Of a stretch of DNA of 64,000 nt, positions 48,021-64,000 are shown piece by piece. This stretch comes from Marispirochaeta sp. (GTDB taxonomy: Bacteria; Spirochaetota; Spirochaetia; JC444; Marispirochaetaceae). The notes below the pieces were generated by a model that had not been told where the DNA came from, made no database searches, and saw nothing but the letters and a program-made list of their open reading frames with translations. Position 1 is the stretch's first letter. Each line of letters starts with the position of its first letter. Location: the NCBI GenBank assembly GCA_963676835.2, contig CAXXFF010000001.1, positions 32,001 to 96,000 on the forward strand, written 5' to 3'. Both the position numbers and the translations under genes were made by a program.

Positions 48021-48929
48021 TTATTTGTCAGACTTCTTACTATCTATTCGTTCGACTTCCACCGGTAGTCTTTCCGGAGGATGTACCTCAAGCAGGCCGG
48101 ATCCTCTTCTATGAAAGAGGGACACTATTCCACAGTCCCATTTCAGATGCTTTCTAATATACAACTCCACATCATAACGCGTTCTATCGTGAAGTCCTCT
48201 ATGAACGGTAACGATTGTGTCGGTATGGTTTACTATCGGGCATATCCTATCCAGGGATTCAAGTGTTATATCCTGATCATAGGGGATCTCCGGAGGCAAT
48301 TCCAACGCAACAAGTATCGCACAATTATGTTCTCTTGCACTCTCCTGCAGAAGCCGAATCTTTTCTACAATATTTGTATCACGTACAGTCAAACCATCAA
48401 TAATAACAAGTTTTACATCCTGAATATCTTTCACAGGGTCTTCTGACCCGGGAGGTAAATAGTAGAACGCTTCACCAACCTCGGGCATAAACGGATTGTG
48501 AATCACATTAAAAGAATTGACGGAGATAACGGTCATGGGCGCACCAGCTATATGATTTGCTGCTTTCTCCAAGACCTCTTCATCATAATCACTGGCGGAA
48601 AACGGAATCCCTGCCAATTCCCGCACAAACAATTCTAATTGGTACTCTATATCCGAGTGGCTACTTACAAGGCTGACAGGTATACGCTTTAATACACTTA
48701 ATCGATACAGAATAGTCCTTAGAACCGTACTTTTACCCACCCTGGCTGCCCCAGCCAACAGGTGCAGCCCTGATTTAGTAAATCCACCGCCGAATGCTTT
48801 ATCGAGGGTTTTTAATCCGGTTCTTAAAAATGGAGTATATGAATCATCATCGATAGAATGCTGAATCCGCCGGACAGCTTCCTTAACAGCATCATCTATA
48901 TCGATATTCACAACACCATCTTTGCACAT
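48021..48929 (-). CDS. degenerate DnaB C-terminal (RecA-fold) ATPase-like protein
   Basis: TGLKTLDKAFGGGF, Walker A AGAARVGKST, Walker B LVIIDGL. No DnaB N-terminal domain. GGAGG RBS. Confidence 0.75.
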   Translation of the reverse strand: MCKDGVVNIDIDDAVKEAVRRIQHSIDDDSYTPFLRTGLKTLDKAFGGGFTKSGLHLLAGAARVGKSTVLRTILYRLSVLKRIPVSLVSSHSDIEYQLELFVRELAGIPFSASDYDEEVLEKAANHIAGAPMTVISVNSFNVIHNPFMPEVGEAFYYLPPGSEDPVKDIQDVKLVIIDGLTVRDTNIVEKIRLLQESAREHNCAILVALELPPEIPYDQDITLESLDRICPIVNHTDTIVTVHRGLHDRTRYDVELYIRKHLKWDCGIVSLFHRRGSGLLEVHPPERLPVEVERIDSKKSDK

Positions 48930-49113
48930 GGTTTACCTCCATTAATCTGAATTGAAAAACTACTGATCGCCTTAGGGTTAACGTTTCGGCAATAATCACC
49001 TGAATTTGCCGATAAAATGGTCTTTCGCTCTGCCGATATATCTTCGACAAATACTTTGCAGTCACTTCGCCATAAGCTGATTCTTTTCATGTTATAGATG
49101 TTATGTTCGGTCC

Positions 49114-49130
49114 ACGTCATATTATGTCGT
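49114..49130. promoter_or_regulatory. candidate WYL-regulator operator 1
   Basis: CGTCA-TATTA-TGTCG between the divergent DnaB-like and WYL genes. Confidence 0.6.
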
Positions 49131-49171
49131 TTATATTTTTTTATTGTGCTTCCAGGTAAAATATAAGTACA

Positions 49172-50167
49172 ATGGGCGATATGAGTTTCAGAGCACAAAT
49201 AACCCGCATAAATTATATTGATCAACGTTTACGCAACATGAAAGACTACCCTTCCTCCAATCAGCTTCTTCAGGGGCTTCTGGATGCAACCGGTGAAACT
49301 GTCTGCAAACGAACAATGCAGCGGGATATTACCTGGATGCGGGATGAGGGTGCTCCTATAGAATATGACAGCCGCAACAGAGGCTATTACTACTCCCACG
49401 AAAACTGGCAGATGCCGGCCATCAGCATGACAGAAGGAGACCTGCTTGCACTTCTGGTGGCAGACCGGGCCTTGTCAGGTTACCGAAACAGCCCCTATTA
49501 CGATAAATTGAAGCAGGTTTTCGAGCGACTGACACACCTCCTGCCGGAGAAGGTAACGGTTGCCTCCGAGGACCTGGCAGCGGGTGTATCGGTTGTCAGC
49601 GATCCTGTTACTAGAATCTACCCGGAAATATGGGACCTGATTCGGGAAGGAATGGACAGCCGCAAATCGGTCGGCATACAGTACCAGAGCCCCGGGTATT
49701 CCGAAGCGGTGGAAAGGACTATCGACCCCCTGCATATCGTTGGCCACCGGGGCGAGTGGTATGTACTGGGCTGGTGCCACAGGAAGGAGCAGGTACGTAT
49801 CTATGCCTTTGCCAGAATCAAGTACTGCAAGGTAACCGGAAAATCATTTCAGCCGCCGGAAGGGTTTAAAGCGGAAAACTATATTGACCCAAACATCGGT
49901 ATTTTTGTCAGCGAAGAGTCTGTGGATATGCTTATCCGCTTTAAAAATGAGGCGGCGGTAAAAATTCAGGAACGGAGATGGCATCCGGACCAGCAGATTA
50001 CAAAAAACCCCGACGGCAGCATAACCCTATCCTTCAACACAAATCAGCAGTCTCAAATTCTCTTCTGGGTATCCCAGTGGGGACCGGATGCGGAGATTCT
50101 GAAACCTGAAGGGCTGCGGCAAAGAGCGAAGGAACGGTTTGAGGCGATGGCAGCGTTGTACAGGTAG
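49172..50167 (+). CDS. wHTH-WYL-WCX transcriptional regulator
   Basis: RTMQRDI-x-x-MR wHTH, IEYD...RGYYY, RTIDPLHI...WYVLGWC...RIY..ARI, C-terminal WG..AEILKP..LR. Confidence 0.93.
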   Translation: MGDMSFRAQITRINYIDQRLRNMKDYPSSNQLLQGLLDATGETVCKRTMQRDITWMRDEGAPIEYDSRNRGYYYSHENWQMPAISMTEGDLLALLVADRALSGYRNSPYYDKLKQVFERLTHLLPEKVTVASEDLAAGVSVVSDPVTRIYPEIWDLIREGMDSRKSVGIQYQSPGYSEAVERTIDPLHIVGHRGEWYVLGWCHRKEQVRIYAFARIKYCKVTGKSFQPPEGFKAENYIDPNIGIFVSEESVDMLIRFKNEAAVKIQERRWHPDQQITKNPDGSITLSFNTNQQSQILFWVSQWGPDAEILKPEGLRQRAKERFEAMAALYR

Positions 50168-50176
50168 AATTTCAGC

Positions 50177-50270
50177 CTAGTCAACAGCCCAGCCTTCGAA
50201 TATGATAGCGTCTACTGATGTATATTCCCATTGATCATCACCATCCATATTGTTGAAAACAATCGGATCA
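50177..50270 (-). pseudogene. 3' remnant of a paralog of the 50986-51249 gene
   Basis: Reads DPIVFNNMDGDDQWEYTSVDAIIFEGWAVD* versus DPIVIHNMDGDDQWEYTSVNAIIYDGWAVD*; 38-bp identical core. Confidence 0.85.
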
Positions 50271-50318
50271 ACAATAAAATAGTAATCCCTTATAATTAAT
50301 AATTGCTTGAAAAGCAGA

Positions 50319-50358
50319 CTCCGATGTGTATATTATAACCATTATATACACATCGGAG
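50319..50358. promoter_or_regulatory. vapBC operator-like inverted repeat
   Basis: Perfect 15-bp arms CTCCGATGTGTATAT/ATATACACATCGGAG with a 10-nt spacer, overlapping the promoter region and RBS. Confidence 0.7.
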
Positions 50359-50366
50359 GCAGGCAT

Positions 50367-50561
50367 ATGCGAACAAATATCGTGATTGATGATAGTTTAA
50401 TGAATCAAGCCATTGAATTATCCGGATATAAAACAAAGAAGGAAACTGTCGAAGAAGCATTACGTATGCTGATCAAATTCAAACAGCAGAATGCTATAAG
50501 ATCATTAAGGGGAAAATTAAAATGGGAAGGTGATCTTGATGCAATGAGAAATGATAAATGA
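50367..50561 (+). CDS. vapB: VapB family antitoxin
   Basis: MRTNIVIDDSL...KTKKETVEEAL...LRGKLKWEGDL; ATGA overlap with the PIN toxin gene. Confidence 0.9.
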   Translation: MRTNIVIDDSLMNQAIELSGYKTKKETVEEALRMLIKFKQQNAIRSLRGKLKWEGDLDAMRNDK

Positions 50562-50950
50562 TTGTTGTGGATACATCAGCCTGGATAGACTATTTTAACG
50601 GAAAAACAGCTCCTCATACAGATAGATTGGATAAAGATTTAGGAATAGAAAGAGTAATTATAGGAGATTTGATAATTACAGAATTACTGCAGGGATTTAA
50701 AAACGACACAGAGTATGGAATAGCCAAGAAATTATTAGAAAGTCTGGAATATAGAGATTTCGTAGGTAAAAAAATCGCAATCCAGGCAGCAGATAATTAT
50801 AGATATTTACGAAAAACGGGAGTAACTGTTAGAAAAACAATAGATGTTATAATAGCTACTTTTTGTATAGAAAATGAATACGAACTAATCCATAACGACA
50901 AAGATTTCGACCCATTTGAAGAATATCTCGGGTTAAAGATTAGAAATTAA
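50558..50950 (+). CDS. vapC: VapC family PIN toxin
   Basis: VVDTSAWI, TELLQG, RKTIDVIIA, HNDKDF. Confidence 0.93.
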   Translation: MIVVDTSAWIDYFNGKTAPHTDRLDKDLGIERVIIGDLIITELLQGFKNDTEYGIAKKLLESLEYRDFVGKKIAIQAADNYRYLRKTGVTVRKTIDVIIATFCIENEYELIHNDKDFDPFEEYLGLKIRN

Positions 50951-50985
50951 AAATCTTAGTCTGAGAGCTTAATCTGCCCGCCTGC

Positions 50986-51249
50986 TCAGTCGACAGCCCA
51001 TCCATCGTAGATGATGGCATTAACTGATGTATATTCCCATTGATCATCACCATCCATATTATGGATAACAATAGGGTCATCGGTTTTTCGGGTCATATAG
51101 GAAGGGTCGTTTTCTATATAGCCATAGATACGTCCATCGTCCTTTCGTTTCTTAAGAATGCATTTGGGCCCGGGGAAACCGCCATCAAGCATATCTTCCA
51201 GTGTTTTCCGGCTCATTTCAGTTAATTCATCAGACCAGCTATTTTTCAT
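50986..51249 (-). CDS. small hypothetical protein
   Basis: 87-aa ORF with an AAGGAG RBS; the paralog remnant differs largely at third codon positions. Confidence 0.75.
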   Translation of the reverse strand: MKNSWSDELTEMSRKTLEDMLDGGFPGPKCILKKRKDDGRIYGYIENDPSYMTRKTDDPIVIHNMDGDDQWEYTSVNAIIYDGWAVD

Positions 51250-51305
51250 ATAAAATCTCCTTGTAATGTTTATTGCATCTGCCTACCAAAGAAGCATCCA
51301 TAGAT

Positions 51306-51611
51306 TCAAAACAGGCCCATCTGTTCATAGTGCCTTCGGTTCTTAGGTAATTCATCCATGTCCTCAGACCATCCTTCTTCATGCAGATCATCAACAATGT
51401 GCTGCAGTGCTGCAGCCCTGGACTCTTCGCCAAAGATTTTTACTGCTTCTTCAATACCGGAGAGATGATGCCGTACCTTTCGATGCCGCATTCCATATTC
51501 TTTGGAACCGGCGAATTCATCCAGCCATACATGTATTTCCGTATAGGGTTTGCCGAATTGTTCGATGCTGTGTTTTTCATGGTCAGAGAGCTTAATAATC
51601 AACCTCCACAA
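51306..51611 (-). CDS. His-rich small protein (DUF6915-like); start uncertain
   Basis: H...IH-x-WLD...RHR-x-x-RHH-x-x-GI...QH-x-x-DD pattern; family assignment from memory. Confidence 0.65.
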   Translation of the reverse strand: MWRLIIKLSDHEKHSIEQFGKPYTEIHVWLDEFAGSKEYGMRHRKVRHHLSGIEEAVKIFGEESRAAALQHIVDDLHEEGWSEDMDELPKNRRHYEQMGLF

Positions 51612-51658
51612 AGGTGTGATCCTCTAATACAAATCATTTTTAGTTTATTCACAGGTAT

Positions 51659-51675
51659 ACGACATAAATTGTCGC
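51659..51675. promoter_or_regulatory. candidate WYL-regulator operator 2
   Basis: Perfect CGACA-TAAAT-TGTCG between divergent genes. Confidence 0.65.
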
Positions 51676-51742
51676 GGTCAGGGAATTACTATCTTTTTAT
51701 GAATATTGAATCATTCGAGAAAATGATGGTAGCGTTGCATAT

Positions 51743-52207
51743 ATGAAAACAGTTTTTAAACGAAAAAGACTACCCTACCATGGAGCCGGAGTGTTGATCT
51801 GGCGTGAAGGTAATAATGGTATTCCTGAAATCCTGTTAGGCAAACGATCACAGAATGTCGGACATGGAGCCGGGAAATGGAGTACTTTCGGCGGCAAACA
51901 GGAGCGCCACGAAAGCGTTTACCGGTGCGCTATGCGGGAAGCAGCGGAAGAGACCGGCCTGCAATCTGAGGTTCTATTGGATCAGGAATTCTTTATCTTC
52001 AACCCGCGACCTTTTAAGAAAAGGACTATCCCTTTTGTCTATTCATTTACCTACTACTCCTGCGAAGCTATAAAGGCGCCGAAGGGATGGCCGCGCAAAA
52101 ACCGGGAACACACTGAAATAGGCTGGTTTTCTGTACAGCAACTGCCGGAGCCGCTTCACAGGGAAGCTCGGAGGGTAATAAAACGATGGATAAGAAACAA
52201 CAAATAA
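51743..52207 (+). CDS. NUDIX hydrolase
   Basis: Nudix box GGKQERHESVYRCAMREAAEETGL; EHTEIGWF...LPEPLH. Confidence 0.92.
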   Translation: MKTVFKRKRLPYHGAGVLIWREGNNGIPEILLGKRSQNVGHGAGKWSTFGGKQERHESVYRCAMREAAEETGLQSEVLLDQEFFIFNPRPFKKRTIPFVYSFTYYSCEAIKAPKGWPRKNREHTEIGWFSVQQLPEPLHREARRVIKRWIRNNK

Positions 52208-53139
52208 AAGGCGGCATCCTTGGACTTGCTGTCGGTGATGCCCTGGGGGTACCGGTAGAGTTCAGCAGCAGAGAAGCGCGTGACATGGCCCCGGTTACGA
52301 CCATGCAGGGATGGGGTACTCACAATCAACCGCCGGGGACCTGGTCGGATGATACATCCATGGCACTTTGCGTACTTGAGTCAATTATCGAAAATGAATG
52401 GGACTTTGAGGACCAAGGAGAGCGTTTTACTCGCTGGCTTGATAATGCTCATCTTACTGCGCACGATGAAGTGTTTGATGTCGGGATTGCAACAACCAAA
52501 GCGATAAATCGGCTCCGCACCGGAACGCCGGCGGCTCAGGCCGGAGGCGACAGCGAATATTCCAACGGGAACGGTTCCTTAATGCGGAATCTTCCCGCCG
52601 CCATCTATTGTTCCCTTTCTGTAACAGATGAAGAGCTGGTGACTATGATCGGCGAGTCCTCATCCATTACCCATGCCCATCCCCGCAGCCGACTGGGTTG
52701 TATTATCCATGCTATTATTGTATCAGAGCTGCTTCAGAGCAGGGATATTATGCAGGCTGTCGAACAGTCCCGAAAGCGCCTGGATGTTCTCATAGAGCGT
52801 AATATTCTGATGGATGATCTGAAACAGGAACTTTCGGCATATGGTCGCCTGCTAAATAGCAATATCCATATTCTTGAACGCCATGAGATTTCATCATCAG
52901 GCTACGTTGTCTCCACGCTGGAAGCGGCTGTCTGGTGCCTGGCAACCAGCAGTTCCTTTGAAGAGTGCCTGTTAAAGGCAGTCAATCTGGGAGATGACAC
53001 CGATACCGTAGGAGCCGTTGCCGGGGGGCTTGCCGGGCTCTATTGGGGAATAGAGGGTATTCCGGCAGAATGGCTTGAGGCTTTGGCAAAGGGCGAGATA
53101 ATTTTCTCAATGGTTGAGTGGTTTATCGGGTTGGTTTAG
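52186..53139 (+). CDS. ADP-ribosylglycohydrolase (ARH/DraG family)
   Basis: GLAVGDALGVPVEF, GTWSDDT, NGNGSLMR, THAH, NLGDDTDT. Confidence 0.95.
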   Translation: MDKKQQIKGGILGLAVGDALGVPVEFSSREARDMAPVTTMQGWGTHNQPPGTWSDDTSMALCVLESIIENEWDFEDQGERFTRWLDNAHLTAHDEVFDVGIATTKAINRLRTGTPAAQAGGDSEYSNGNGSLMRNLPAAIYCSLSVTDEELVTMIGESSSITHAHPRSRLGCIIHAIIVSELLQSRDIMQAVEQSRKRLDVLIERNILMDDLKQELSAYGRLLNSNIHILERHEISSSGYVVSTLEAAVWCLATSSSFEECLLKAVNLGDDTDTVGAVAGGLAGLYWGIEGIPAEWLEALAKGEIIFSMVEWFIGLV

Positions 53140-53406
53140 CAGTTTTTCAGGGTTCCCCACCCTTGCGAACAGTCTGTCTGCTAAAGTAATTGCAGGCAGC
53201 TTTCATTCTGCAGACCGGTCCGCAGTTCGGGCGGAAGATTCGTTTGTACTCTTCAACTGTGTAGACACTGAAGTTCACATCAGTAATGTCCCACGAATTA
53301 TACAGCTTCTTATAATTCCCGCCGCTATACACTTTTTTGGCTCTTCGGACTTTCCGGTTTGCCATTTGTTTATGCAGCTTCCTTCCTCTTTGTTTAGGGA
53401 ATTTGA
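52625..53406 (+). repeat. ~780-bp direct repeat, copy 1
   Basis: Matches 56086-56867 at a constant offset of 3461 bp; near-identical except the first ~90 bp. Confidence 0.92.
53147..53406 (-). pseudogene. 5'-truncated copy of the small basic gene at 56608-56943
   Basis: Same frame (...MANRKVRRAKK...) but the upstream part is replaced by the primase fragment. Confidence 0.65.
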
Positions 53407-53965
53407 TGGCTGAAAGTCTTGATTCAGGAATACAGAATGATTTTTCTCCCTGGCTCTTTTCTGCAATGGGAGAGCAATGAGATTCCCGGATCCTCCCTTG
53501 GGGAGGGTATCCTGATTGGGAAAGAAACGGTCGAATGAGTCCAGCCCTATTTCCGGTCGCTGGTCCAGGGATTTCGTTAATAAGGCGGATCCCAGACTCC
53601 GAGCCAGCCGGGCCGAAACGACTTCATCAAAGAAGATCCAGATATGTCCGCCGTTGCCGGATCTCGACCGTTCCAGATAGGCCGGGATTCCTTCTGTCTC
53701 ACAGGTTTTCATAAAAGCCGCTGTATCCTGCTCCCAATTCTCTTTGTCAAAATCCAAAGCCAGGAAATAACAGGTTTCATCCGGTAGAAGCGGATAAATC
53801 CCCATAACAAAGGGCTGAGGTTCCCCTTTTGGATAGGTGGATGGAGATTCTCCTTTCAGATGATAGGATATGATTTCGTTTGTTACGGGCAGAAACTGTC
53901 TATTGGAACAGACGGCACATTTTACTTCCGGTTTTCCACAAAGCCCCGGCTGCCATTCGTTTATA
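53407..53965 (-). pseudogene. fragment of an archaeo-eukaryotic primase domain (TOTE conflict-system type)
   Basis: NEW..GLC.KP.VKC..C, GIYPLL, LALDFD, ERSRSGNGGH, DRFFPNQD, GNLIALPLQ. Both termini appear to be missing. Confidence 0.75.
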
Positions 53966-54004
53966 CGGGGCGTTTTGGCCGGCTTCTTTTCTTCAACATC
54001 ACTT

Positions 54005-54535
54005 CTATTCTTCTTCTGCGTCCTCATAATGTTCATATACAAGACTCGCGATTTCATCATGAAACCCCCAGCCTATGCCTTCGGTTTCATCTATAAAACC
54101 GAAACACTGATCCTTGTATTTCTTCAGCAGGTCATTTTCACTTATATGCACAAGAAACCGTTCCAATGATTTTACAATATTTTCGTAAAACCGTTCATCA
54201 ATGTCTCCGTATTCATTGGTAAAATCTATTCCGCATCTGACATGTGTAAAAAGAAGTTCTGCCATGTAACCGGAATCTTTTGATATTTTATTGAATTTTG
54301 TAATGGCCTCTCGGATATTAGCATACCGAAGCTTACCTAATCCCTTTTCAGGGAAGAATTCATCGATAATCTGCTTTTTGTATTTCTGAAAGATAATATC
54401 AGGATTTGTATAACCGTAGCTCTCATCAAGAATTTCTTTGGCAAGTGGGACTTTTCTGTATAAATCTATGATTATTGCCATCAATTCGTTTTTTTGCATG
54501 GAGTTTATTTCTTTCTTTAATTCTCTTATTCCCAT
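54005..54535 (-). CDS. hypothetical helical protein (DUF6155-like)
   Basis: FTNEYGDIDERFY...GIGWGF pattern; family assignment from memory. Confidence 0.65.
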   Translation of the reverse strand: MGIRELKKEINSMQKNELMAIIIDLYRKVPLAKEILDESYGYTNPDIIFQKYKKQIIDEFFPEKGLGKLRYANIREAITKFNKISKDSGYMAELLFTHVRCGIDFTNEYGDIDERFYENIVKSLERFLVHISENDLLKKYKDQCFGFIDETEGIGWGFHDEIASLVYEHYEDAEEE

Positions 54536-54536
54536 T

Positions 54537-55592
54537 TTATTCCTTTTCAGCCTTCTTTTTTTCTATCATCTTTTTGATTTCCTTATCGAAATCAGATTCG
54601 ATCTTCTGGATTTTATTAAATTCATCATACTCGGAATAGGCTTTTTTCTCAGCAATTCTGTGAGAAACAGATCCTTTCCCTTCAAGAATCCTGTACTCAT
54701 TAAAATCAAGGAATTTGTTCACTGATTCTGTTAAAGATTCCATGGTAAAAGTAGTTCTGTTTTCGATAAGCCGTTCAATATAATCAAAATAACCGGTTAT
54801 AGCCCGTTCCAGCTTTTTAATCTCATCTTCTTTAAGGTAATTCTTTGCAACAACTGTGTCAGATTTGAGGATACGCCCGTCAGGAGCATTCTTCCATGTT
54901 GTCATTCCCATAAAAGGCTTGTCTTTATCGGCTTTAGAATGCACAATTTCTGCAGATGTCTGGCCAGTAATTGCGAAATGAAATTTATTCTGGATCATTG
55001 CATAGAATGATTTAGTAATATCCGATTTCGGGTCATAGTCAATGGTACATTCAGCAAAAATATCAGTAATCTGCTGATATATTCGCCTTTCACTGCTGCG
55101 AATTGAGCGGACTCTTTCAAGTAACTCTTGGAAATAATCCTGACCAAAGAAACGGCCGTTCTTTAGCCGTTCATCATCCATAACAAAACCTTTGATAATA
55201 TATTCCTTTAGGGTGTTAGTCGCCCAAATACGGAATTGTGTGGCTTGTCGAGAATTTACTCTATAACCCACAGAAAGCACAGCATCAAGATTAAAGTATT
55301 TGACTAGTTTTTTTTGAGTTTTACCCTCTATTGCACCATGCTGAGTGGTATTTTCCAAAATGGAAACAACCACTTTTTCATCAAGTTCCCCACTTTCAAA
55401 AATGTTCTTCAGGTGTTTAGATATAGCGGCTATACCAACTCCGAACAGTTCGGCCATTCGCTTTTGAGTCAACCAGATCGTCTCATTATTGAGAAAGACT
55501 TCTACCTTTACATTTCCGTCGTCAGCGGTATATAACAGGAATTCAGTAAGTTCGTCTCTTGTAGAGAGTGGCTTTTTTCGTTCTTTACCCAT
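54537..55592 (-). CDS. RhuM family protein
   Basis: TIWLTQK.MAELF, SVGYRVNS, TQFRIWAT, KGFVMDDERLK, IRSSERR.YQ, QNKFHFA, AKNYL. Confidence 0.92.
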   Translation of the reverse strand: MGKERKKPLSTRDELTEFLLYTADDGNVKVEVFLNNETIWLTQKRMAELFGVGIAAISKHLKNIFESGELDEKVVVSILENTTQHGAIEGKTQKKLVKYFNLDAVLSVGYRVNSRQATQFRIWATNTLKEYIIKGFVMDDERLKNGRFFGQDYFQELLERVRSIRSSERRIYQQITDIFAECTIDYDPKSDITKSFYAMIQNKFHFAITGQTSAEIVHSKADKDKPFMGMTTWKNAPDGRILKSDTVVAKNYLKEDEIKKLERAITGYFDYIERLIENRTTFTMESLTESVNKFLDFNEYRILEGKGSVSHRIAEKKAYSEYDEFNKIQKIESDFDKEIKKMIEKKKAEKE

Positions 55593-55861
55593 CAGATACA
55601 ACCTCCTGAACAGGATCCTATGGTGATGTTATTATGTTGAACTGTTTCCATTTTAGAAATAGTTGCTTCCCGGTTGAGTTGCCCCTCTTCGAATATGTTT
55701 TTCAAGTGCTTTGATATTGCGGAAACATTAACCCCGAAAAGTTCAGCCATTGCATTCTGGTGGTGCCAGATAGTTTCATTTTGTAAGATAGTATCGACTT
55801 TGTTGTCGCCTTCCGGGGTGGTGTACAGGAGTATTTGGGATTGGGTGGAATGTTCCTTCAT
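55592..55861 (-). pseudogene. N-terminal fragment of a second RhuM-like gene
   Basis: ILLYTT...ETIW..Q.AMAELFGV..SAISKHLKNIFEEG.L; similarity ends after ~75 aa. Confidence 0.8.
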
Positions 55862-56085
55862 GGATTCTTTTCCTATTGCCCTTCACTTTCCTTAATCACT
55901 TTGCTTAGCACGGCACGGACTTGGTGCGATTCGATAAGCACCAATGGATTCCTGGGCGCGGGGATTGTAAGACTGTATTTGTTTATTTATATCATATATT
56001 TAACCAGATAGACACGGAGTTGCCTATAATGTTCCGCGAATATACGAGGTTGGCAGAAGGCAAATTTGGTTAAAGTAAAGCAGAT

Positions 56086-56867
56086 CGGATGACAATCTGG
56101 CAACGATGATCAGCGAGACTTCATCCATTATTCACGGCCAGCCCCGCAGCCGGATGGGTTGTATTATCCATTCTTTTATTGTATCAGAACTGCTTCAGAG
56201 CAGGGATATTATGCAGGCTGTCGAGCAGTCCCGAAAGCGCCTGGATGTTCTCAAAGAGCGTAATATTCTGATGAATGATCTGCAACAGGAACTTTCGGCA
56301 TATGGTCGCCTGCTAAATAGCAATATCGATATTCTTGAACGCCATGAGATTTCATCATCAGGCTACGTTGTCTCCACACTGGAAGCGGCTGTCTGGTGCC
56401 TTGCTACCAGCGGTTCCTTTGAAGAATGCCTGTTAAAGGCAGTCAATCTGGGAGATGACACCGATACCGTAGGAGCCGTTGCCGGGGGGCTTGCCGGGCT
56501 CTATTGGGGAATAGAGGGTATTCCGGCAGAATGGCTTGAGGCTTTGGCTAAGGGCGAGATGATTTTCTCAATGGTTGAGAGGTTTATCGGGTTGGTTTAG
56601 CAGTTTTTCAGGGTTCCCCACCCTTGCGAACAGTCTGTCTGCTAAAGTAATTGCAGGCAGCTTTCATTCTGCAGACCGGGCCGCAATTCGGGCGGAAGAT
56701 TCGTTTGTACTCTTCAACGGTGTAGACACAGAAGTTCACATCAGTAATGTCCCACGAATTATACAGCTTCTTATAATTCCCGCCGCTATAACCTTTTTTG
56801 GCTCTTCGGACTTTCCGGTTTGCCATTTGTTTTTGCAGCTTCCTTCCTCTTTGTTTAGGGAATTTGA
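56086..56867 (+). repeat. ~780-bp direct repeat, copy 2
   Basis: Matches 52625-53406. Confidence 0.92.
56106..56600 (+). pseudogene. 5'-truncated ADP-ribosylglycohydrolase
   Basis: C-terminal half only; lacks the GDALG and SDDT motifs. Confidence 0.88.
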
Positions 56868-56943
56868 CAGATGGGTATTTTTTCCAGGTCTTGCTGTTTT
56901 TTCTAACTCCGTATCAGGTTGTTAGAAACAGGGCATATTTCAT
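56608..56943 (-). pseudogene. small basic protein gene with in-frame TGA at codon 10 (or a leader peptide plus gene)
   Basis: AAAGGAGG RBS and ATG at 56943: MKYALFLTT*YGVRKNSKTWKKYP...ANRKVRR...YKKLYNSWDI. Confidence 0.55.
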
Positions 56944-56997
56944 GCAGGACCTCCTTTGTGGGTTTGTTTGCTATGATTGGATGGTAGCATTTTTAGG

Positions 56998-57014
56998 GCG
57001 TCATGGGATGTCGC
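56998..57014. promoter_or_regulatory. candidate WYL-regulator operator 3
   Basis: CGTCA-TGGGA-TGTCG about 55 bp upstream of the ATG at 56943. Confidence 0.6.
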
Positions 57015-57897: not shown

Positions 57898-58185
57898 GTG
57901 TCTAAGAGTCCATATTCGGAAGAATTTAAGGCAGAAACTATCAAGCAAATCATGGAAGAAGGCGTTGGCGTTTTGGCTGTTGCCAAGGCAACCGGTGTTA
58001 GCGACGTCACCTTATACAAGTGGCTCAAAGTTGCCGGGTGGAAATCAGGCGAGTCAAAAGACAAAAAGAAAATTACTGAAGCTGACCAGGAAATAAAGGC
58101 GCTTAAGGCAGAGCTTAAGCAGGTCAAAATGGAGCGTGACATCCTAAAAAAGGCCGCAGCGTACTTTGCCGGGGAGTCCCTGTAA
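57898..58185 (+). CDS. IS3 transposase OrfA
   Basis: YSEEFK...HTH...ERDILKKAAAYF; A6G slippery site at 58146-58152. Confidence 0.92.
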   Translation: MSKSPYSEEFKAETIKQIMEEGVGVLAVAKATGVSDVTLYKWLKVAGWKSGESKDKKKITEADQEIKALKAELKQVKMERDILKKAAAYFAGESL

Positions 58186-58223
58186 AGTACGCATTTATCA
58201 AAGAACATCGTAGCACTTACCCG

Positions 58224-59042
58224 GTGCGACAGATGTGCAGGGCCATGAAAGTCCATCCATCAGGCTTCTATCGGTGGATTAAGAACCCAGAATCCAAACG
58301 AGCCATCCAAAACCGGGTAATAACCCAAGAGATCCGCCATTATTGGGAAGAAAGTGGAGGCACTTACGGAAGTCCCAATATTCATCAGGATTTCAAGGAG
58401 GCTGGCTATTCTTACAGTGTTAACCGTATTGCGCGACTTATGAAAGAAGCAGGTATACAGGGTGCTCACCGCCGCAAAAAGCATCCTTACATTCCTCCAG
58501 AAGGACCTGTACACAGTCTTAATCAGCTCAATCGTGAGTTCACTGTTAGCGATCCTAATCGTGTCTGGTGTATCGACATAACATATATTCGAACCTGTGA
58601 GGGCTGGCTGTACCTGGCAGTTGTCATAGATCTGTTCAGCAGGCGAATAGTTGGATGGTCTATGAAGAGTAACCAGAAAACAGCCTTGGTCATGGATGCT
58701 TTGTTTATGGCAGTCAAACGAAGACGGCCAAAACAGACAGTTCTAATTCACTCCGATCAAGGTACCCAGTTCACCAGCTATGAATGGGATAGCTTCTGTG
58801 AGTTCCACAATTTGGATCCGAGTATGAGTCGAAGAGGCAATTGCTGGGATAATGCCGTTGTTGAATCCTTCTTCTCCAGCTTGAAAAAAGAACGGGTAAA
58901 GAAAAAAATCTACAAAAACAGGGAGGTAGCACGCAAAGATATTTTCAATTACATAGAGTTATTTTACAATCCTAAAAGGCGGCATAGCCATTTGGACCGT
59001 CGAAGTCCGGCTCAATTCGAAGCTATGTATTTAACCCCGTAA
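58224..59042 (+). CDS. IS3 transposase OrfB (DDE); likely joined to OrfA by -1 frameshift
   Basis: WCIDITY, HSDQG and NAVVESFF catalytic motifs. Confidence 0.93.
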   Translation: MRQMCRAMKVHPSGFYRWIKNPESKRAIQNRVITQEIRHYWEESGGTYGSPNIHQDFKEAGYSYSVNRIARLMKEAGIQGAHRRKKHPYIPPEGPVHSLNQLNREFTVSDPNRVWCIDITYIRTCEGWLYLAVVIDLFSRRIVGWSMKSNQKTALVMDALFMAVKRRRPKQTVLIHSDQGTQFTSYEWDSFCEFHNLDPSMSRRGNCWDNAVVESFFSSLKKERVKKKIYKNREVARKDIFNYIELFYNPKRRHSHLDRRSPAQFEAMYLTP

Positions 59043-59103
59043 AGTGTCGACAGAATCGGGGGAATTCCATGCCGCATATTCGACATATGTTTAAACCAGA
59101 GCA

Positions 59104-59256
59104 TTACATGTCTCTCGTATAACGATTCTGTTCACCATTTCGGCAAACATTGCAAAGCCGCAGTTTGTCGTCCTTGCCGTCTTTGATACGAATAACAACC
59201 GCCCGACATTCCGGATTTGAGCAAATATACTTAATCAGATTCGGGTTATTTTTCAT
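59104..59256 (-). CDS. 50-aa zinc-ribbon protein (below the ORF-track cutoff)
   Basis: MKNNPNLIKYICSNPECRAVVIRIKDGKDDKLRLCNVCRNGEQNRYTRDM*; overlaps the end of the upstream ORF. Confidence 0.6.
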   Translation of the reverse strand: MKNNPNLIKYICSNPECRAVVIRIKDGKDDKLRLCNVCRNGEQNRYTRDM

Positions 59257-59473
59257 GAGCCGGAATCCTCAATATGCCGGAGTCTATTAACTCCTGTAGT
59301 CGCTCTGCATCTGATAGCAATCGCTCCCGTTGGGAACGCTTATCTCTGCCCTCTTTTCGAGTGACCCATTCTTCAAATGCAATAAGCCCGAAAGCTGAGC
59401 GTAATTTTTCAGACGGAATATACCGTGCTGCCCTGTTCCATAGTTCGTCCGGTACCTGGAATTGAATTATCAA
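59246..59473 (-). CDS. small hypothetical protein, possibly ribbon-helix-helix
   Basis: TTG start after GGGAGG; IQFQVPDELW strand-helix pattern. Confidence 0.55.
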   Translation of the reverse strand: MIIQFQVPDELWNRAARYIPSEKLRSAFGLIAFEEWVTRKEGRDKRSQRERLLSDAERLQELIDSGILRIPAHEK

Positions 59474-59610
59474 AACGTCCTCCCTATCCGTTTTTTCGTA
59501 CTGCTTACCGGTACTTATTCGCTTTTCCTGTTTTCATTACAGGCCTGTACCGGATTACTTGCACACAGGGCTTATTGTTTGCCTGTCGTGCCTGTATTCT
59601 TCAATTTCTT

Positions 59611-60084
59611 CTATTGTTCCGGATTATTCTTCTTTTTCTTATGCGCACCTCCTTTCTCCCATCCGTATTTTAATGGGTTTTCCAAGATCCAAAGGTGACG
59701 CATGTTTGCAACATTCACGACATCACAATTCTTTGGATAGACTTCTATTGCATACTTATCACCACGACCCACCTGATCTTTAATTTGCTGAAGTTGTTCC
59801 CAGGTTAGCCGGTCAATATATTCAAGTTGAGTATTATATTCGGTACGACATATAGAGAGACGCTCAACATTCTCAGGTTCTTCGAAAACCTGTACTATAT
59901 ATTTTCTCGAATGCCAGACTTCTTTAAGGACTCGAGGTCCTTTCTTCCTCATAGCATCAGGCCATTCAGGTTTTGGTATTAAAGAAAGATTGTGTGGCCG
60001 AAGAGTATTTTCTCTACTGACAGCTTTCTTGTATTGTCTCCGTTGTTCACGGTTCATATTCTTTATGTTTGTTTTATTCTTCAT
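59611..60084 (-). CDS. phage-type hypothetical protein
   Basis: RLSI...TWEQLQQIK...AIEVYP....VN....RHLW pattern; start uncertain. Confidence 0.65.
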   Translation of the reverse strand: MKNKTNIKNMNREQRRQYKKAVSRENTLRPHNLSLIPKPEWPDAMRKKGPRVLKEVWHSRKYIVQVFEEPENVERLSICRTEYNTQLEYIDRLTWEQLQQIKDQVGRGDKYAIEVYPKNCDVVNVANMRHLWILENPLKYGWEKGGAHKKKKNNPEQ

Positions 60085-60211
60085 TTTCTCTATCAACCTC
60101 CGATTCCCGGTTTTCAATAAATGCGATTATTCCAAACACTAAAAGTCCTACCACGACTGCACCGACGCATCCACCAATAGACGCCCAGAAGCCAAACAGA
60201 AACGGGTTCAT
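60074..60211 (-). CDS. small single-TM protein
   Basis: GGAGG RBS, ATGA overlap, hydrophobic Gly-rich helix. Confidence 0.55.
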   Translation of the reverse strand: MNPFLFGFWASIGGCVGAVVVGLLVFGIIAFIENRESEVDRENEE

Positions 60212-60393
60212 ATTTCCTCCACTGAGGTTCGCCGGAAGGCAACCATTCTTTTTTCGCTTGAAGAATTTACTTCTCCACAACGGCCGTATTTTTTGCATCT
60301 GTTAGCACCGTCCTTCTTAATCCGGTAAGAACAGTTTCGTCCGTCACCACAATTTCCGCCGCCAAGATAATAGATACACTTCGATTCGCTCAT
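60208..60393 (-). CDS. small Cys-rich protein
   Basis: ATGA overlaps at both ends; five Cys residues. Confidence 0.55.
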   Translation of the reverse strand: MSESKCIYYLGGGNCGDGRNCSYRIKKDGANRCKKYGRCGEVNSSSEKRMVAFRRTSVEEI

Positions 60394-60665
60394 GCCGTAC
60401 CCCGTAACCGCTCAACCTTGTCGCATTTCTGAATTATCATGTGTGCATAATTGGCGATGTCAGCCGCTTCCAACCTGATTAGATCGGTGTCCTGGTGGTG
60501 ATTGTCTATTTCTTTTTCCAGCTCATTAAGCTCTTCCTGTAGCATGACAAAGAGCTGCCCGAACGAAAGGTTATTCCATCCTCCTTTCTCTTCATTCATT
60601 TTCAGCTTAACCAGCTGGGCTTGGTTGCCTGCTTTAAGCAGTTTTTCATAATTCCGCTTTTCCAT
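60390..60665 (-). CDS. MazG-like all-alpha NTP pyrophosphatase-like protein
   Basis: QEELNEL...LEAADIANYA (ExxE...ExxD) motif. Confidence 0.6.
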   Translation of the reverse strand: MEKRNYEKLLKAGNQAQLVKLKMNEEKGGWNNLSFGQLFVMLQEELNELEKEIDNHHQDTDLIRLEAADIANYAHMIIQKCDKVERLRGTA

Positions 60666-60826
60666 TCATTACTCCATAAATTGTATTTATCCATAATGCG
60701 AAGCATGGCCATATTCTCCGCGCGCGTTCTTTTCATTCCGCCGTCATATTCCATAATGGCGGCGCGTTCTTCGAGCTCTTCACGGTATCGCGGATACCGT
60801 TCAAGAAACTCGGTATACGTCATCAC
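60602..60826 (-). CDS. phage-type hypothetical protein
   Basis: EERAAIMEYDGGM-x-R-x-x-AE motif; ATGA overlap with the recombinase stop. Confidence 0.65.
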   Translation of the reverse strand: MMTYTEFLERYPRYREELEERAAIMEYDGGMKRTRAENMAMLRIMDKYNLWSNEWKSGIMKNCLKQATKPSWLS

Positions 60827-61797
60827 TCGTTGGTCCCTGATGATTCTCTTTTCGTTAACCGCTTTTCAAAATCGGGGATTTCTTCAAGTTTCACTGTTGT
60901 ATGGATGTACATGTCCGCGGTTAACTCTGTTTTTGCATGTCCGAGGTAGTCGCTTACTGCTTTCAGGTCTTTTCCGTTCTGCAGCATCATCATGGCAAAG
61001 GAATGCCGGAATACATGAGGCCCGATCTTGCGGTTTATAATGTCGACTGATAACTCTTGTATCTTTTTATAGATAAACTTGCGGTCAAGAATGGTCTTGT
61101 CCCGGGTGCAGAAAAGATAGTCATGCCCCTGATACAGTCTTTCTATACGGGTCCATAGGCTTTTAGTTATCTGAACATGCCGCTCTTTGTTGCCTTTTCC
61201 GGTAACGACAATATCAACGAAATCATCATGTACTGTTGCTGCGCTCCGCCGGCAGTTGGTCAGCTCAGATACCCGGCAACCAGTTGTAATAAGAAAAAGG
61301 ATAATCGCCTGAGTGTGCCTGTCTGCTTTTTTAAGAAATACGTCTACCTCATCCGGTGTCAGGTATCGCTCTCGCGGAATGCGCTTCGTCTGGATCCGCT
61401 TGGTTTTGATAGAGCGAAAAAGCCGGTCAATGAAGAATTGATCAAGACGGCTCCAGCGTTCCGGATTCTGTGCAATCAGTTCAGCAACTATCTTTTTAAC
61501 TGCACATTTTTTCCGGTTAAGTGTTTGGGCCCGTTCATCTGCAGCCGCCGCCAGCTCTATATACTGGATCAGGCTCAAGAGCGTGAACGGTCTGTTGAAT
61601 GCCTCAAGGTAGCTGATGATATGTGTATTGGTTGGAAGGTAGCTACCGAAGATCCGACTATTGAGTAGAAACCCCTGAACCTGCTCTAACGGGAAGATTT
61701 CCTGTTCCAGGCTACTGATATGCCTGATATCCTCCCCCATGGGCTCTAAATAGACAGAAGATTGATTCTGTATATTATTTTCTGTCGTTTTATTCAC
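60823..61797 (-). CDS. tyrosine recombinase (XerC/D-like catalytic domain)
   Basis: TGCRVSE, GKGNKER, PHVFRHSFA, LGHA, MY: the full R-K-H-R-H-Y set. Confidence 0.93.
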   Translation of the reverse strand: MNKTTENNIQNQSSVYLEPMGEDIRHISSLEQEIFPLEQVQGFLLNSRIFGSYLPTNTHIISYLEAFNRPFTLLSLIQYIELAAAADERAQTLNRKKCAVKKIVAELIAQNPERWSRLDQFFIDRLFRSIKTKRIQTKRIPRERYLTPDEVDVFLKKADRHTQAIILFLITTGCRVSELTNCRRSAATVHDDFVDIVVTGKGNKERHVQITKSLWTRIERLYQGHDYLFCTRDKTILDRKFIYKKIQELSVDIINRKIGPHVFRHSFAMMMLQNGKDLKAVSDYLGHAKTELTADMYIHTTVKLEEIPDFEKRLTKRESSGTNE

Positions 61798-62588
61798 GCA
61801 ATTTCACCACCGCGTTCAACCAGTAGATCAATTATTGCTTTAAAAGTTGATTCTTCAGCACAGTATACTTTCAGGTTTGAGTGGGTCCGGTCGAGCTTCA
61901 GGTAAAACATACCGATATCCTGTTTGCCGGCTTTCGATACCGTTTTTCCGTTTTTCCGTTTTTCCGTTATCTTCTTCTTTGGATCAACAATCTGTTCGCA
62001 GTATTCTTCGAGTTTATCCGGCATCCACCGTTTACCAAGTACGGCAGCAGACATCTTTAACCAGTATTTCTTTTCATGCCGAGTTACAATGCGCCCTATT
62101 TCAAGGGTCATCTGGTTAATTACATGAATGGGTATTTTCCCTGATTCAATCAGGTATGTGCGCAGGACATGGTATCCGATGCGGCGCTCTACCCAGATAT
62201 GTGCCCGGCCGAGTATTTGCCCGAGTCGTGTTTTTGATATATCCAGTTCCTGGAATAGCTCGAATACACATTTTGCCTCTTCATGCACAAGCATATTTGC
62301 ACGCTGCATATTCTCCGTAAGCTGTACGGCTTTAACATTTTTAAAGCTTTCCACTATCGCCGGGATCTTTTCCCAGCCCAAAGCTTTACAGGCGTTATAT
62401 CTTCTATGCCCTGCCACAAGGTGAAAATCTCCATCATTAACAGAAACAAGAATTGGCTGCAGCAGACCATGTGCTTCAATAGAGGCTTTTAGATCATCGA
62501 TATCGACTGAATCATCACGGATGTTTTTTACCTTGTGAATTTTTTCAATAGGAATGTGTTGAATGTCGTTCATCTTCTTCTCCTTCAT
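61794..62588 (-). CDS. ParB/Spo0J-like protein
   Basis: LKASI...GLLQPILV, VAGHRRYNA, ENMQR, then an HTH-like segment. Confidence 0.9.
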   Translation of the reverse strand: MKEKKMNDIQHIPIEKIHKVKNIRDDSVDIDDLKASIEAHGLLQPILVSVNDGDFHLVAGHRRYNACKALGWEKIPAIVESFKNVKAVQLTENMQRANMLVHEEAKCVFELFQELDISKTRLGQILGRAHIWVERRIGYHVLRTYLIESGKIPIHVINQMTLEIGRIVTRHEKKYWLKMSAAVLGKRWMPDKLEEYCEQIVDPKKKITEKRKNGKTVSKAGKQDIGMFYLKLDRTHSNLKVYCAEESTFKAIIDLLVERGGEIA

Positions 62589-62809
62589 GGCAGTACCATT
62601 AAATTCTCACCAGCTGCAGCACGGCGGGATAATTCTCGTTCCAGTGGTTCGACACTCTTGGACAGGAGTTTGTCGGTCTTTTCGTACAGCTCAATAATTA
62701 ATTTGGTATAGTCTACGGGAAGGTCATCGAATACATCACCAAGTTTCAAAAGATTCCGCCGCAGTTCATCGATGCGATACCATGTGGATGGATTTCTTAC
62801 TTCCGGCAT
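62585..62809 (-). CDS. small hypothetical protein
   Basis: ATG after GGGAGG; stop overlaps the ParB start. Confidence 0.6.
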   Translation of the reverse strand: MPEVRNPSTWYRIDELRRNLLKLGDVFDDLPVDYTKLIIELYEKTDKLLSKSVEPLERELSRRAAAGENLMVLP

Positions 62810-62991
62810 GCCTGTCCCTCCCTGCATTCAGAACATTTCAGTGTATGTATTCTTGTTTTGAGCTCTACGAACATCGGTGTAAGTTCAGAAGCAGGCTTTT
62901 TCTCCATGACCGATTTTCGCTGAATTGATGCCATATCATCGATGTATTGATACAATGCGTTTATTCCCTGGCTCATTGTGTAATCCTGCAA
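62797..62991 (-). CDS. small hypothetical protein
   Basis: Fits the overlapping gene chain; CxxC near the C-terminus. Confidence 0.5.
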   Translation of the reverse strand: MQDYTMSQGINALYQYIDDMASIQRKSVMEKKPASELTPMFVELKTRIHTLKCSECREGQACRK

Positions 62992-63740
62992 AAAAGAGAA
63001 GACTGTGAGTAGGTAAGTACTTTTTTATTTGCCAATTTGAAAAAGTCTTTTTTTATTTCAAATCCATAACCTCTGCGGTTAAGATTTTTAGCAGCAAGCA
63101 ATGAAACAGCGGATCCTGCCACCGGATCAATTACGACTTCATTTTCATCGGTGAATATTTCAATAAACCGTTCCAAGAGTCTTACCGGTTTTTGTGTCGG
63201 GTGTACTTTTGGTGTTTCATTATCACGCGGCCAGTCCATATTATTAAAAACCATATTTCCGTGGTTGTTGAATTTGGGCAGCTTGTCACGGTAAAACAGG
63301 ATTGCATATTCTGCATTCCCAACTATCCGCATATTGGCTTTTAATACCTGAGGTGAAAAATCTTTCTTAAAAACAAGGTTGATGAATTTCGGAAATCCGT
63401 GTTTCTTTGCTTCTTCGATCAATTCAAACTGCTGCTCAAATGCGCAGAAGACTATCATACAGCCGGCTTTACCGCGTTCTTTCGGTTCAGGCTTTAACAG
63501 CCTACCGCAGAAGTGAAAGAATTCTGGAATGCGGAAATCGTTGTCAGTATCGAAAAAAGCTTTCCCGGCAAGGTTACTTTCTCCGTTTTTATTATCACCA
63601 TCAATGTACCAAGAAGGATTACTGCCGTATGCATTAATCCCGACATTGTAAGGAATATCTGCAATGACCAGCTGGGCTTTCGGTATGTTGTAAAGCTTAT
63701 AGTTCTGGAAGTGATCATTGAACAGTTTGATTTTATCCAC
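62973..63740 (-). CDS. orphan N6A/N4C DNA methyltransferase (beta class)
   Basis: Motif IV IADIPY precedes HPTQKP and motif I VIDPVAGS; GFEI. GTG start at 63740 chosen. Confidence 0.9.
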   Translation of the reverse strand: MDKIKLFNDHFQNYKLYNIPKAQLVIADIPYNVGINAYGSNPSWYIDGDNKNGESNLAGKAFFDTDNDFRIPEFFHFCGRLLKPEPKERGKAGCMIVFCAFEQQFELIEEAKKHGFPKFINLVFKKDFSPQVLKANMRIVGNAEYAILFYRDKLPKFNNHGNMVFNNMDWPRDNETPKVHPTQKPVRLLERFIEIFTDENEVVIDPVAGSAVSLLAAKNLNRRGYGFEIKKDFFKLANKKVLTYSQSSLFCRITQ

Positions 63741-63925
63741 TATCTTTCCTTTACTTGTAATTACAGGGAGCAGGAGGAGTCGAACCTCCTTCCGGTGTAT
63801 GGACCGTCCACCAAGTCCCACGACGGTTTATCCAAAACCCTCCACAGATGGCGGAGCACCACACAACCCGGGACCCCCAAGATCGCCGGGCTTCCACCGA
63901 CTGCTCCGGACTTTTCCGGATCTGA

Positions 63926-63997
63926 TAGCGGGGGGCGGAATCGAACCGCCTACCTGGAGGATATGAGCCTCCCGAGCTGCCAATGCTCTACTCCACG
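63926..63997 (-). tRNA. initiator-like tRNA-Met (CAT), atypical
   Basis: CGTGGAG-TA-GAGC-ATTGGCA-GCTC-G-GGAGG-CTCATAT-CCTCC-AGGTA-GGCGG-TTCGATT-CCGCC-CCCCGCT-A. Confidence 0.8.
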
Positions 63998-64000
63998 ATG

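Follow-up and report, generated by a model that had tools for sequence, protein, structure and literature searches.

Which protein reads the three copies of a palindrome that lie between genes around a WYL-domain regulator gene in Marispirochaeta sp., and does it switch the flanking genes on or off? The locus lies within a 64,000-nt stretch of DNA (hereafter the window; GCA_963676835.2, contig CAXXFF010000001.1, positions 32,001-96,000 of the forward strand), and coordinates given here are positions in that window. The source genome (4.43 Mb) is labeled G000, G041 is another of 61 compared genomes, and L-numbers designate related loci. A first-pass annotation of the window had proposed that the WYL protein activates, in both directions from these palindromes, a damage- or phage-inducible regulon of mostly uncharacterized genes. 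We consider it quite probable, based on sequence comparison, that the three palindromes are sites of the adjacent WYL protein acting as a DriD-type activator.

All three copies were found at the positions where they had been reported:

49115..49129, both strands: operator 1, CGTCA-N5-TGTCG, in the gap that separates the DnaB-like gene from WYL; probable direction of firing is away from WYL
51660..51674, both strands: operator 2, CGACA-N5-TGTCG, between the divergent DUF6915 and Nudix genes; the only operator that is plausibly two-way
56999..57013, both strands: operator 3, CGTCA-N5-TGTCG; one-sided

The exact motif CGWCA-N5-TGWCG, a pattern chosen post hoc from the three window sites themselves, occurs 3 times in the window against an expectation of 0.07, and none of 100 shuffles reached 3. 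When one mismatch was allowed, no further window site appeared and the excess was gone (3 found, 3.5 expected). In the source genome, cores with a spacer of 4 are in excess (19), yet a -10 hexamer accompanies only 1 of 104 sides; because spacers 4 and 7 are both raised, we read this excess as a reading-frame effect and rejected it as an operator signal.

A TA-N3-T hexamer is present on all five operator sides that face a gene and is absent from the sixth side, as the first-pass annotation had described, at 11 nt on the minus side of operator 1 and at 12 nt elsewhere:

49098..49103, minus strand: -10 TAACAT, 11 nt from operator 1
49142..49147, plus strand: TATTGT, 12 nt from operator 1 towards WYL; a doubtful promoter, with no ATG at offset 24/25 and a T-rich context
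51642..51647, minus strand: -10 TAAACT, 12 nt from operator 2
51687..51692, plus strand: -10 TACTAT, 12 nt from operator 2
56981..56986, minus strand: -10 TACCAT, 12 nt from operator 3

By chance, TA-N3-T occurs at either of two offsets for 6% of local intergenic positions, and it was not found at 11/12 nt from the 3 motif copies elsewhere in the genome. No canonical -35 was found paired with any of the five operator-linked -10 hexamers; the left half-site TGACA was rejected as a -35, since the spacer would be 22 nt. Among the predicted transcription start sites, 49090 and 51699 fall on ATG codons. The plus side of operator 1, which faces WYL, has no ATG at offset 24/25.

A search for homologues of the window WYL protein identified 103, many of them labeled Spirochaetota. 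An alignment-based search located 37 genome loci and 8 metagenome loci and no homologous loci in viral contigs; a single-protein locus search of genomes found nothing. Across 41 orthologue loci totaling 402,890 bases, there are 14 copies of the exact motif, versus 0-5 at other spacers, an excess that was not seen once one mismatch was allowed. The relaxed core YGWCA-N5-TGWCR occurs 37 times at spacer 5 in the same loci, versus 0-9 times at other spacers. TA-N3-T is found at offset 12 on 19 of the 72 sides of 36 distinct cores, with each other offset represented at most 6 times; 20 of these cores have a -10 on one side, and none has one on both. Where a -10 is present, 18 of 22 sides have an ATG at offset 24/25, the predicted start, compared with 3 of 50 sides that lack a -10 and 0 of 52 for control spacers. 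Because the position of the ATG was not used to pick sites, this is an independent check of the -10 assignment. Among 21 previously unseen sites, 10 have ATG or GTG at the predicted start. A -35 with at least 4 of 6 matches is absent from all 22 operator promoters, whereas one is present at 17 of 32 WYL genes. Judged by these positions, the operator-linked promoters in relatives are leaderless.

A profile trained on the relatives only, without the window, ranks the window's five sides 1, 2, 7, 8, and 11 in the genome. The minus side of operator 2 (TAAACT) is the genome's best hit at 24.7 bits, the minus side of operator 3 (TACCAT) is second at 20.7 bits, and operator 1 ranks 7 on its minus side and 11 on its plus side. 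The related loci are not independent of each other, and formal p-values therefore overstate the support.

The distribution of sites among genomes points to the adjacent WYL protein as their reader. G041 is the sole other genome of the 61 with a close orthologue (59%), and it contains 8 strict sites, six of them within 70 kb of its WYL gene. Strict sites are absent from all five same-genus genomes. The remaining 59 genomes contain 21 strict sites versus 35 for a reversed control, whereas 28 orthologue-bearing genomes contain 29 versus 10 for the control. A search anchored on targets gave a second operator type, GGACA-N5-TGTCC (G-type, as opposed to the Y-type with C or T as the outer base), with unchanged phasing. 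At the 13 loci where the WYL helix reads R-T-x-[QEH]-R-D, there are 19 Y-type sites, no G-type site, and 1 other, whereas the 25 loci with other WYL helices have 2 Y-type, 17 G-type, and 9 other sites; the latter group includes L002, misclassed by a frame error (its true helix is KRTVQRD), L013 is without a helix call, and rows shorter than 200 aa, L042 among them, were left out. The window WYL protein falls in a 14-row clade (support 98 in a quick tree) that has no G-type row, and its helix, RTMQRD, fits the window's own Y-type sites. This tally shows, for predicted sites, that operator type (the outer base pair) follows the clade of the neighboring WYL gene, which is not proof of co-evolution.

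The second WYL protein of the source genome has a different helix and its own near-perfect 31-bp palindrome upstream (G000:C2:1530622-1530652), with GGAC/GTCC half-sites and, towards the divergent gene, a TA-N3-T at a distance of 11 nt. We read this arrangement as an equivalent layout that has a different operator. The layout also occurs beyond spirochaetes, beside more distant WYL genes in L037, L038, and L040 (records labeled Planctomycetota, Pseudomonadota, and Verrucomicrobia), where the sites are GGACA-N5-TGTCC with similar phasing.

The regulator itself is encoded between operators 1 and 2:

49181..50167, plus strand: winged helix-turn-helix (wHTH)-WYL-WCX regulator, 328 aa (Pfam WYL and WCX; residue conservation)

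Its architecture is that of class A (wHTH, WYL, and WCX in about 320-330 aa), with HTH_11 on many homologues, and the regulator's profile matches solved chains over the full length. Of the solved structures, PafBC and chains that we interpret as DriD match best; the weakest structural relative is 7tb5 (E 4e-6), which we take to be CapW. Within helix 3 of the HTH, position 47 is R in 44 and K in 14 of 59 homologues, and R51, Y171, R182, Y197, R209, and R215 are invariant in all 59. R47 and R51 correspond to the DNA-reading arginines R47/R51 in DdaA and R46/R50 in PafB (PMC13010146; PMC8635444). In our reading of the structure alignment, the equivalents of the DriD single-stranded DNA (ssDNA)-binding residues Y168, R178, Y192, and R204 are invariant, W206 is replaced by Y, and Y240 is replaced by F. 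The locus has a single WYL gene and its sites are palindromic, so the PafBC arrangement of an adjacent WYL pair with a one-sided motif does not apply.

The reading as an activator follows from the phased palindrome at the -35 place, the promoters with a -10 only, and the same layout beside orthologues, and we infer the mechanism from DriD, PafBC, SiwR, and DdaA. The regulator would be made constitutively from its own leaderless promoter, with R47 and R51 of the dimer reading the GTC half-sites. The switch to the active state would come from single-stranded nucleic acid bound in the WYL domain; we lean slightly towards ssDNA, with RNA or a nucleotide product otherwise. Once activated by its ligand, the dimer would occupy the palindrome, which covers about -39 to -25 where a -35 normally lies, and would recruit the housekeeping RNA polymerase to promoters that have a -10 only. 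The genes turned on would be the DnaB-like unit, the DUF6915 unit, the Nudix-ADP-ribosylglycohydrolase operon, and a now degenerate basic gene. The first-pass proposal is thus retained in part: local activation of mostly uncharacterized genes by the adjacent WYL protein from a site at the -35 place is supported by the sequence evidence, two-way activation as a rule is not supported, and self-activation is doubtful.

With respect to direction, TA-N3-T at 11/12 nt was found on both sides in none of the 36 cores and none of 36 strict sites (the two sets overlap), and general bidirectionality was rejected on these counts, the sites of relatives being almost always one-sided; two two-sided cases were met in a separate scan of relatives. 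At operator 2, each side carries a -10, and the Nudix side also has an ATG at offset 24. Since -10 and ATG occur together at 0.3% of local positions, two-way use of operator 2 is plausible, and we marginally favor it.

Self-activation concerns the plus side of operator 1, where the WYL gene has another candidate promoter:

49168..49173, plus strand: TACAAT, 7 nt before the WYL ATG at 49181; the family's own-promoter -10

Homologous WYL genes appear to have their own leaderless promoter, with a -10 (xA-N3-T) in 27 of 32, a -35 in 17 of 32, and a ribosome-binding site in 4 of 32. For the window gene, the corresponding -35 is TTGTGC (49144-49149), which matches at only 3 of 6 positions and fails the -35 test. 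An operator lies within 60 nt of the start in none of the 32 homologous WYL genes, and autoregulation as a family trait was rejected on that count. In Caulobacter crescentus, the DriD site between driD and its divergent neighbor activates the neighbor only (PMC13004042). For these three reasons (the family's own leaderless promoter, the lack of operators near WYL starts, and the DriD precedent), self-activation of the window gene from TATTGT is doubtful.

The predicted targets and the short open reading frames (ORFs) that precede them are as follows:

48021..48929, minus strand: DnaB_C-like (RecA-fold) protein, 302 aa (Pfam DnaB_C E 1e-5, under cut-off); predicted operator 1 target
48908..49090, minus strand: 60-codon ORF; ATG at the operator 1 predicted start (offset 24); overlaps the DnaB-like start
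50986..51249, minus strand: 87-aa ORF, no known family; downstream of DUF6915, likely on the same transcript
51306..51596, minus strand: DUF6915, His-rich, phage-common (Pfam); ATT stands at the family start, 6 nt beyond GGAGG
51699..51746, plus strand: 15-codon ORF; ATG at the operator 2 predicted start (offset 24); stop overlaps the Nudix ATG
51743..52207, plus strand: Nudix hydrolase (Pfam E 2e-17)
52186..53139, plus strand: ADP-ribosylglycohydrolase (Pfam E 2e-81); overlaps the Nudix gene
56608..56898, minus strand: small basic gene, unnamed family; codon at the family start is AAC; start apparently lost
56914..56943, minus strand: 9-codon ORF with a strong ribosome-binding site ahead; in frame with the basic gene, ends in TGA

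Three of the window targets (DnaB-like, DUF6915, and Nudix) were found under an operator elsewhere too. Operator-led DnaB_C genes occur in L026, L042, and L050, and the window protein aligned with 21% identity to that of L050 (E 4e-6). The DUF6915 protein has an Atlas score of 0.96, with top clusters that are 50-88% viral; homologues were identified in 9 of 62 related loci, operator-led in 3 of the 9, and our literature search found no publication on this family. An operator-led Nudix gene is present in L092. The ADP-ribosylglycohydrolase, which the Tri1 and DraG models match only under cut-off, was found in none of the 62 related loci, and no transferase or phosphatase was found with Pfam among the scanned window ORFs beside the hydrolase, WYL, and Nudix genes. 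The family of the small basic gene is widespread, with 48 relatives (E≤0.001) of mostly 60-140 aa; the protein itself has no Pfam, NCBIfam, PHROG, or PADLOC hit, its Atlas scores are all <0.8, and a word-indexed search returned only the protein itself. The 60-codon ORF has no Pfam, NCBIfam, or PHROG hit.

A short ORF comes first behind each of the four predicted target promoters (49090-48908, 51637-51599, 51699-51746, and 56943-56914, with 60, 12, 15, and 9 codons, respectively), and in the first three cases it runs up to or into the start of the main gene. These leading ORFs could reflect translational coupling from a leaderless start, or decay.

In the relatives, the operator-led genes include one for a dual-specificity-phosphatase-fold protein, usually directly downstream of the WYL gene, as well as genes for double AAA ATPase, DnaB_C-like, DUF6915, Nudix, PD-(D/E)XK, PLD, UDG-family, and DnaA-like proteins and many unknowns. 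With PADLOC, one operator-led protein matches a candidate defence family (PDC-S26) and the AAA ATPase has a weak match to IetA; recA, uvr, and ssb were not among the scanned operator-led targets. L042, L050, and G041:C1:977931-1046491 are islands with 5-8 operators, nearly one per gene, and G041 has two extra sites 240-510 kb away, ahead of duplicated units near DUF6915 genes.

Several observations weigh against the activator reading. A genome-wide motif scan, as the first-pass annotation had suggested, bears out the clustering in the window and finds no enrichment in the genome as a whole (6 exact copies, with 5.1 expected from half-site frequencies); the window's own signal is therefore local clustering plus phasing, and independent support comes from the related loci. 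Four hits elsewhere in the genome score above three of the window's sides with the relatives-trained profile, and 16 of the 36 cores in relatives have no -10 on either side. The strict site is absent from 14 of the 28 orthologue-bearing genomes, which are drafts and in part belong to clades that use the G-type operator. The operator switch amounts to one change on a quick tree of non-independent relatives, and its p-values are overstated. In the WYL domain, the places equivalent to DriD R176 and R207 hold V and A, so the ligand may differ from that of DriD; with four DriD ssDNA residues invariant, two changed conservatively, and two lost, it may be ssDNA, RNA, or a nucleotide product. The ATG codons at the window's predicted start sites open short ORFs rather than the main genes, and two window targets have no standard start codon (ATT for DUF6915 and AAC for the basic gene).

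These last two features suggest that the window copy may be decaying, and the family system could be real while the window copy is a relic, in which operators persist and output is largely non-functional. Two insertions with flanking duplications interrupt the module, the basic gene has lost its family start, DUF6915 begins at ATT, the 9-codon ORF ends in TGA, and the family's commonest targets (phosphatase and AAA ATPase) are missing from the window island. Set against this, the reading frames of WYL, Nudix, ADP-ribosylglycohydrolase, and DUF6915 are unbroken and retain conserved residues, the three cores are perfect, and the phasing is kept; we regard a relic as unlikely, though worth keeping in mind. 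That the palindromes arose by chance in AT-rich intergenic DNA might be argued from the post hoc pattern, a genome-wide count equal to expectation, and a locally common TA-N3-T (6%), but the spacer, the phasing, and the place of the start codon all recur in independent loci, and the site is found again in front of shared targets; this footprint in related loci contradicts chance and makes it extremely improbable.

Real sites might also be read by another factor, namely the second WYL protein, LexA, or an alternative sigma factor. The genome does encode the first two, and WYL half-sites are alike across families; however, the sites cluster by this WYL gene and are absent in five same-genus genomes without it, recA has no profile hit although it lies in the window, and operator type follows the clade of the adjacent WYL gene, all of which renders another reader very unlikely. 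The same protein could instead bind the same sites as a repressor, like BrxR or CapW, and be released by a ligand such as ADP-ribose. Section 3.8 of PMC9503650 treats WYL factors by ADP-ribosylglycohydrolases as negative regulators, the window holds Nudix and ADP-ribosylglycohydrolase genes, and the site overlaps the -35 region. A repressor requires a working promoter and no exact phasing, whereas 0 of 22 promoters here have a -35 of at least 4/6, the offset peak is one base wide, and the window's five -10 hexamers have no canonical -35; in addition, the protein has the class A architecture with WCX, and its best solved relatives are activators. Repression is accordingly improbable, and the activator reading is the one we retain.

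Judged by the predicted sites, the regulon would be confined to the island and distinct from the LexA response. The source genome also encodes LexA, RecA, and a second WYL protein, and a global damage regulon was rejected, as no profile hit was found at recA and LexA is present. One same-genus genome aligns with the window as far as 47961 and no further, and the WYL gene was not found in any of five same-genus genomes (E≤1e-40); based on these two results, we consider the WYL region an island. An attachment site or renewed synteny was looked for at its right end and not found. By Pfam, the window ORFs include DnaB_C-like, wHTH-WYL-WCX, vapBC, DUF6915, Nudix, ADP-ribosylglycohydrolase, a primase fragment, DUF6155, RhuM, and a partial second hydrolase, and the island cargo looks like phage-conflict or damage clean-up functions.

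Two duplications lie within the region. A 780-bp direct duplication (95%; 52627-53406 and 56088-56867) stands on either side of a 2.7-kb block with the primase fragment, DUF6155, RhuM, and a RhuM fragment, and it copies the 3' half of the hydrolase gene and most of the small basic gene; operator 3 therefore likely adjoined the Nudix-hydrolase operon before the insertion. A 92-bp duplication (85%; 50179-50270 and 50988-51079) of the end of the 87-aa ORF brackets vapBC, a gene pair with a canonical promoter of its own (50307-50336). Further along, 57898-63998 holds an IS3-family element followed by phage-like genes (DUF7694, tyrosine recombinase, ParB, and DNA methylase) and a tRNA-Met gene. A second ADP-ribosylglycohydrolase (60%) is encoded at G000:C1:345498-352213, with RhuM fragments nearby; the operator core was not found within 335-360 kb around it. 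The covered parts of the region had no differing letters in one read run, which is possibly from the source sample and not independent.

A broader proposal, which we offer tentatively, is a plug-in regulon: a mobile WYL activator with island genes that would each be wired to a nucleic-acid sensor by a 40-nt cassette (operator, 12 nt, -10, and start codon). In such a system, the cassette would mark candidate anti-phage genes (tyrosine-phosphatase fold, double AAA ATPase, DUF6915, DnaB-like, Nudix, and ADP-ribosylglycohydrolase), the WYL factor at ADP-ribose clean-up loci would activate, and the operator at 51660 would fire two promoters.

Although the activation mechanism itself is already known from DriD, PafBC, SiwR, and DdaA, the predicted promoter code is precise for a little-studied spirochaete WYL clade and offers a route to co-regulated genes of unknown function, such as DUF6915, as candidate stress or anti-phage genes. 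Judged from the search output, our literature search found no publication on a spirochaete WYL regulon. Specificity could be tested on the C/T-versus-G difference in operators that has arisen naturally between clades. With its class A features at the sequence level, the system appears to be a conserved island-local spirochaete version of a known activator system; lacking a global repair regulon, it is not DdaA proper.

The activation reading calls into question whether WYL factors at ADP-ribosylglycohydrolase loci are repressors, as has been assumed. The conflict systems of PMC9503650 (section 3.8) resemble the window in placing WYL by hydrolase and Nudix genes, and they resemble the relatives in placing WYL by a rhodanese-phosphatase-fold phosphatase and nucleases. 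Such systems combine the hydrolase with a WYL or Nudix regulator, mostly together with a phosphatase, and have no transferase linked to them. Repression is predicted there, whereas the promoter geometry here points to activation; moreover, since the hydrolase is found in none of the 62 related loci and a phosphatase is lacking in the window island, no single locus here unites the two halves. The operator of BrxR/CapW repressors occludes a canonical -35/-10 promoter of a defence operon, unlike the promoters here, which have no -35.

PafBC and SiwR of mycobacteria share with the window a GTC half-site near -26, two arginines, and a -10 without a -35 (PMC8635444; PMC10693628). PafBC differs as a heterodimer with a one-sided TGTCGG-N10-TA-N3-T motif, an offset of 11, and about 150 targets (PMC8635444). 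SiwR is, like the predicted regulator, a homodimer that activates adjacent genes; it serves one operon, whereas the island genes here tend to have an operator each (8 sides in L042) (PMC10693628).

DdaA of Moraxellaceae has an identical consensus, CGWCA-N5-TGWCG, the wHTH-WYL-WCX architecture, R47/R51 in the recognition helix, and, as in the window protein, a WYL beta4 motif whose first Arg is replaced by Ala (PMC12392091; PMC13010146). The main text of PMC12392091 does not contain the word stem "spiroch". DdaA is described as regulating damage genes genome-wide (recA, ssb, uvr, CRISPR, and restriction-modification), whereas the window regulon is island-local (PMC12392091; PMC13010146); the DdaA site lies about 50 bp upstream of the start, compared with about -39 to -25 here, and the source genome has LexA and a recA without a site. 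According to PMC12392091, ancestral DdaA putatively controlled genes in the vicinity of its locus, and the island-local state here matches what that paper inferred as ancestral to the global damage regulon.

DriD of C. crescentus differs in that two of its promoters have a -10 offset of 11 nt, mostly 12 here (PMC9186387; PMC13004042), that the R176/R207 equivalents are V/A in the window protein, and that the targets here are mostly leaderless island genes. The likenesses extend from protein to promoter: the equivalents of Y168, R178, Y192, and R204 are kept in the window WYL family, the DriD site CGAC-N7-GTCG, which the window motif nearly equals, covers the -35 region with constant spacing to a -10 and no -35 (PMC9186387; PMC13004042), and the DriD site between the regulator gene and its divergent target fires only away from the regulator (PMC13004042), as is likely for operator 1.

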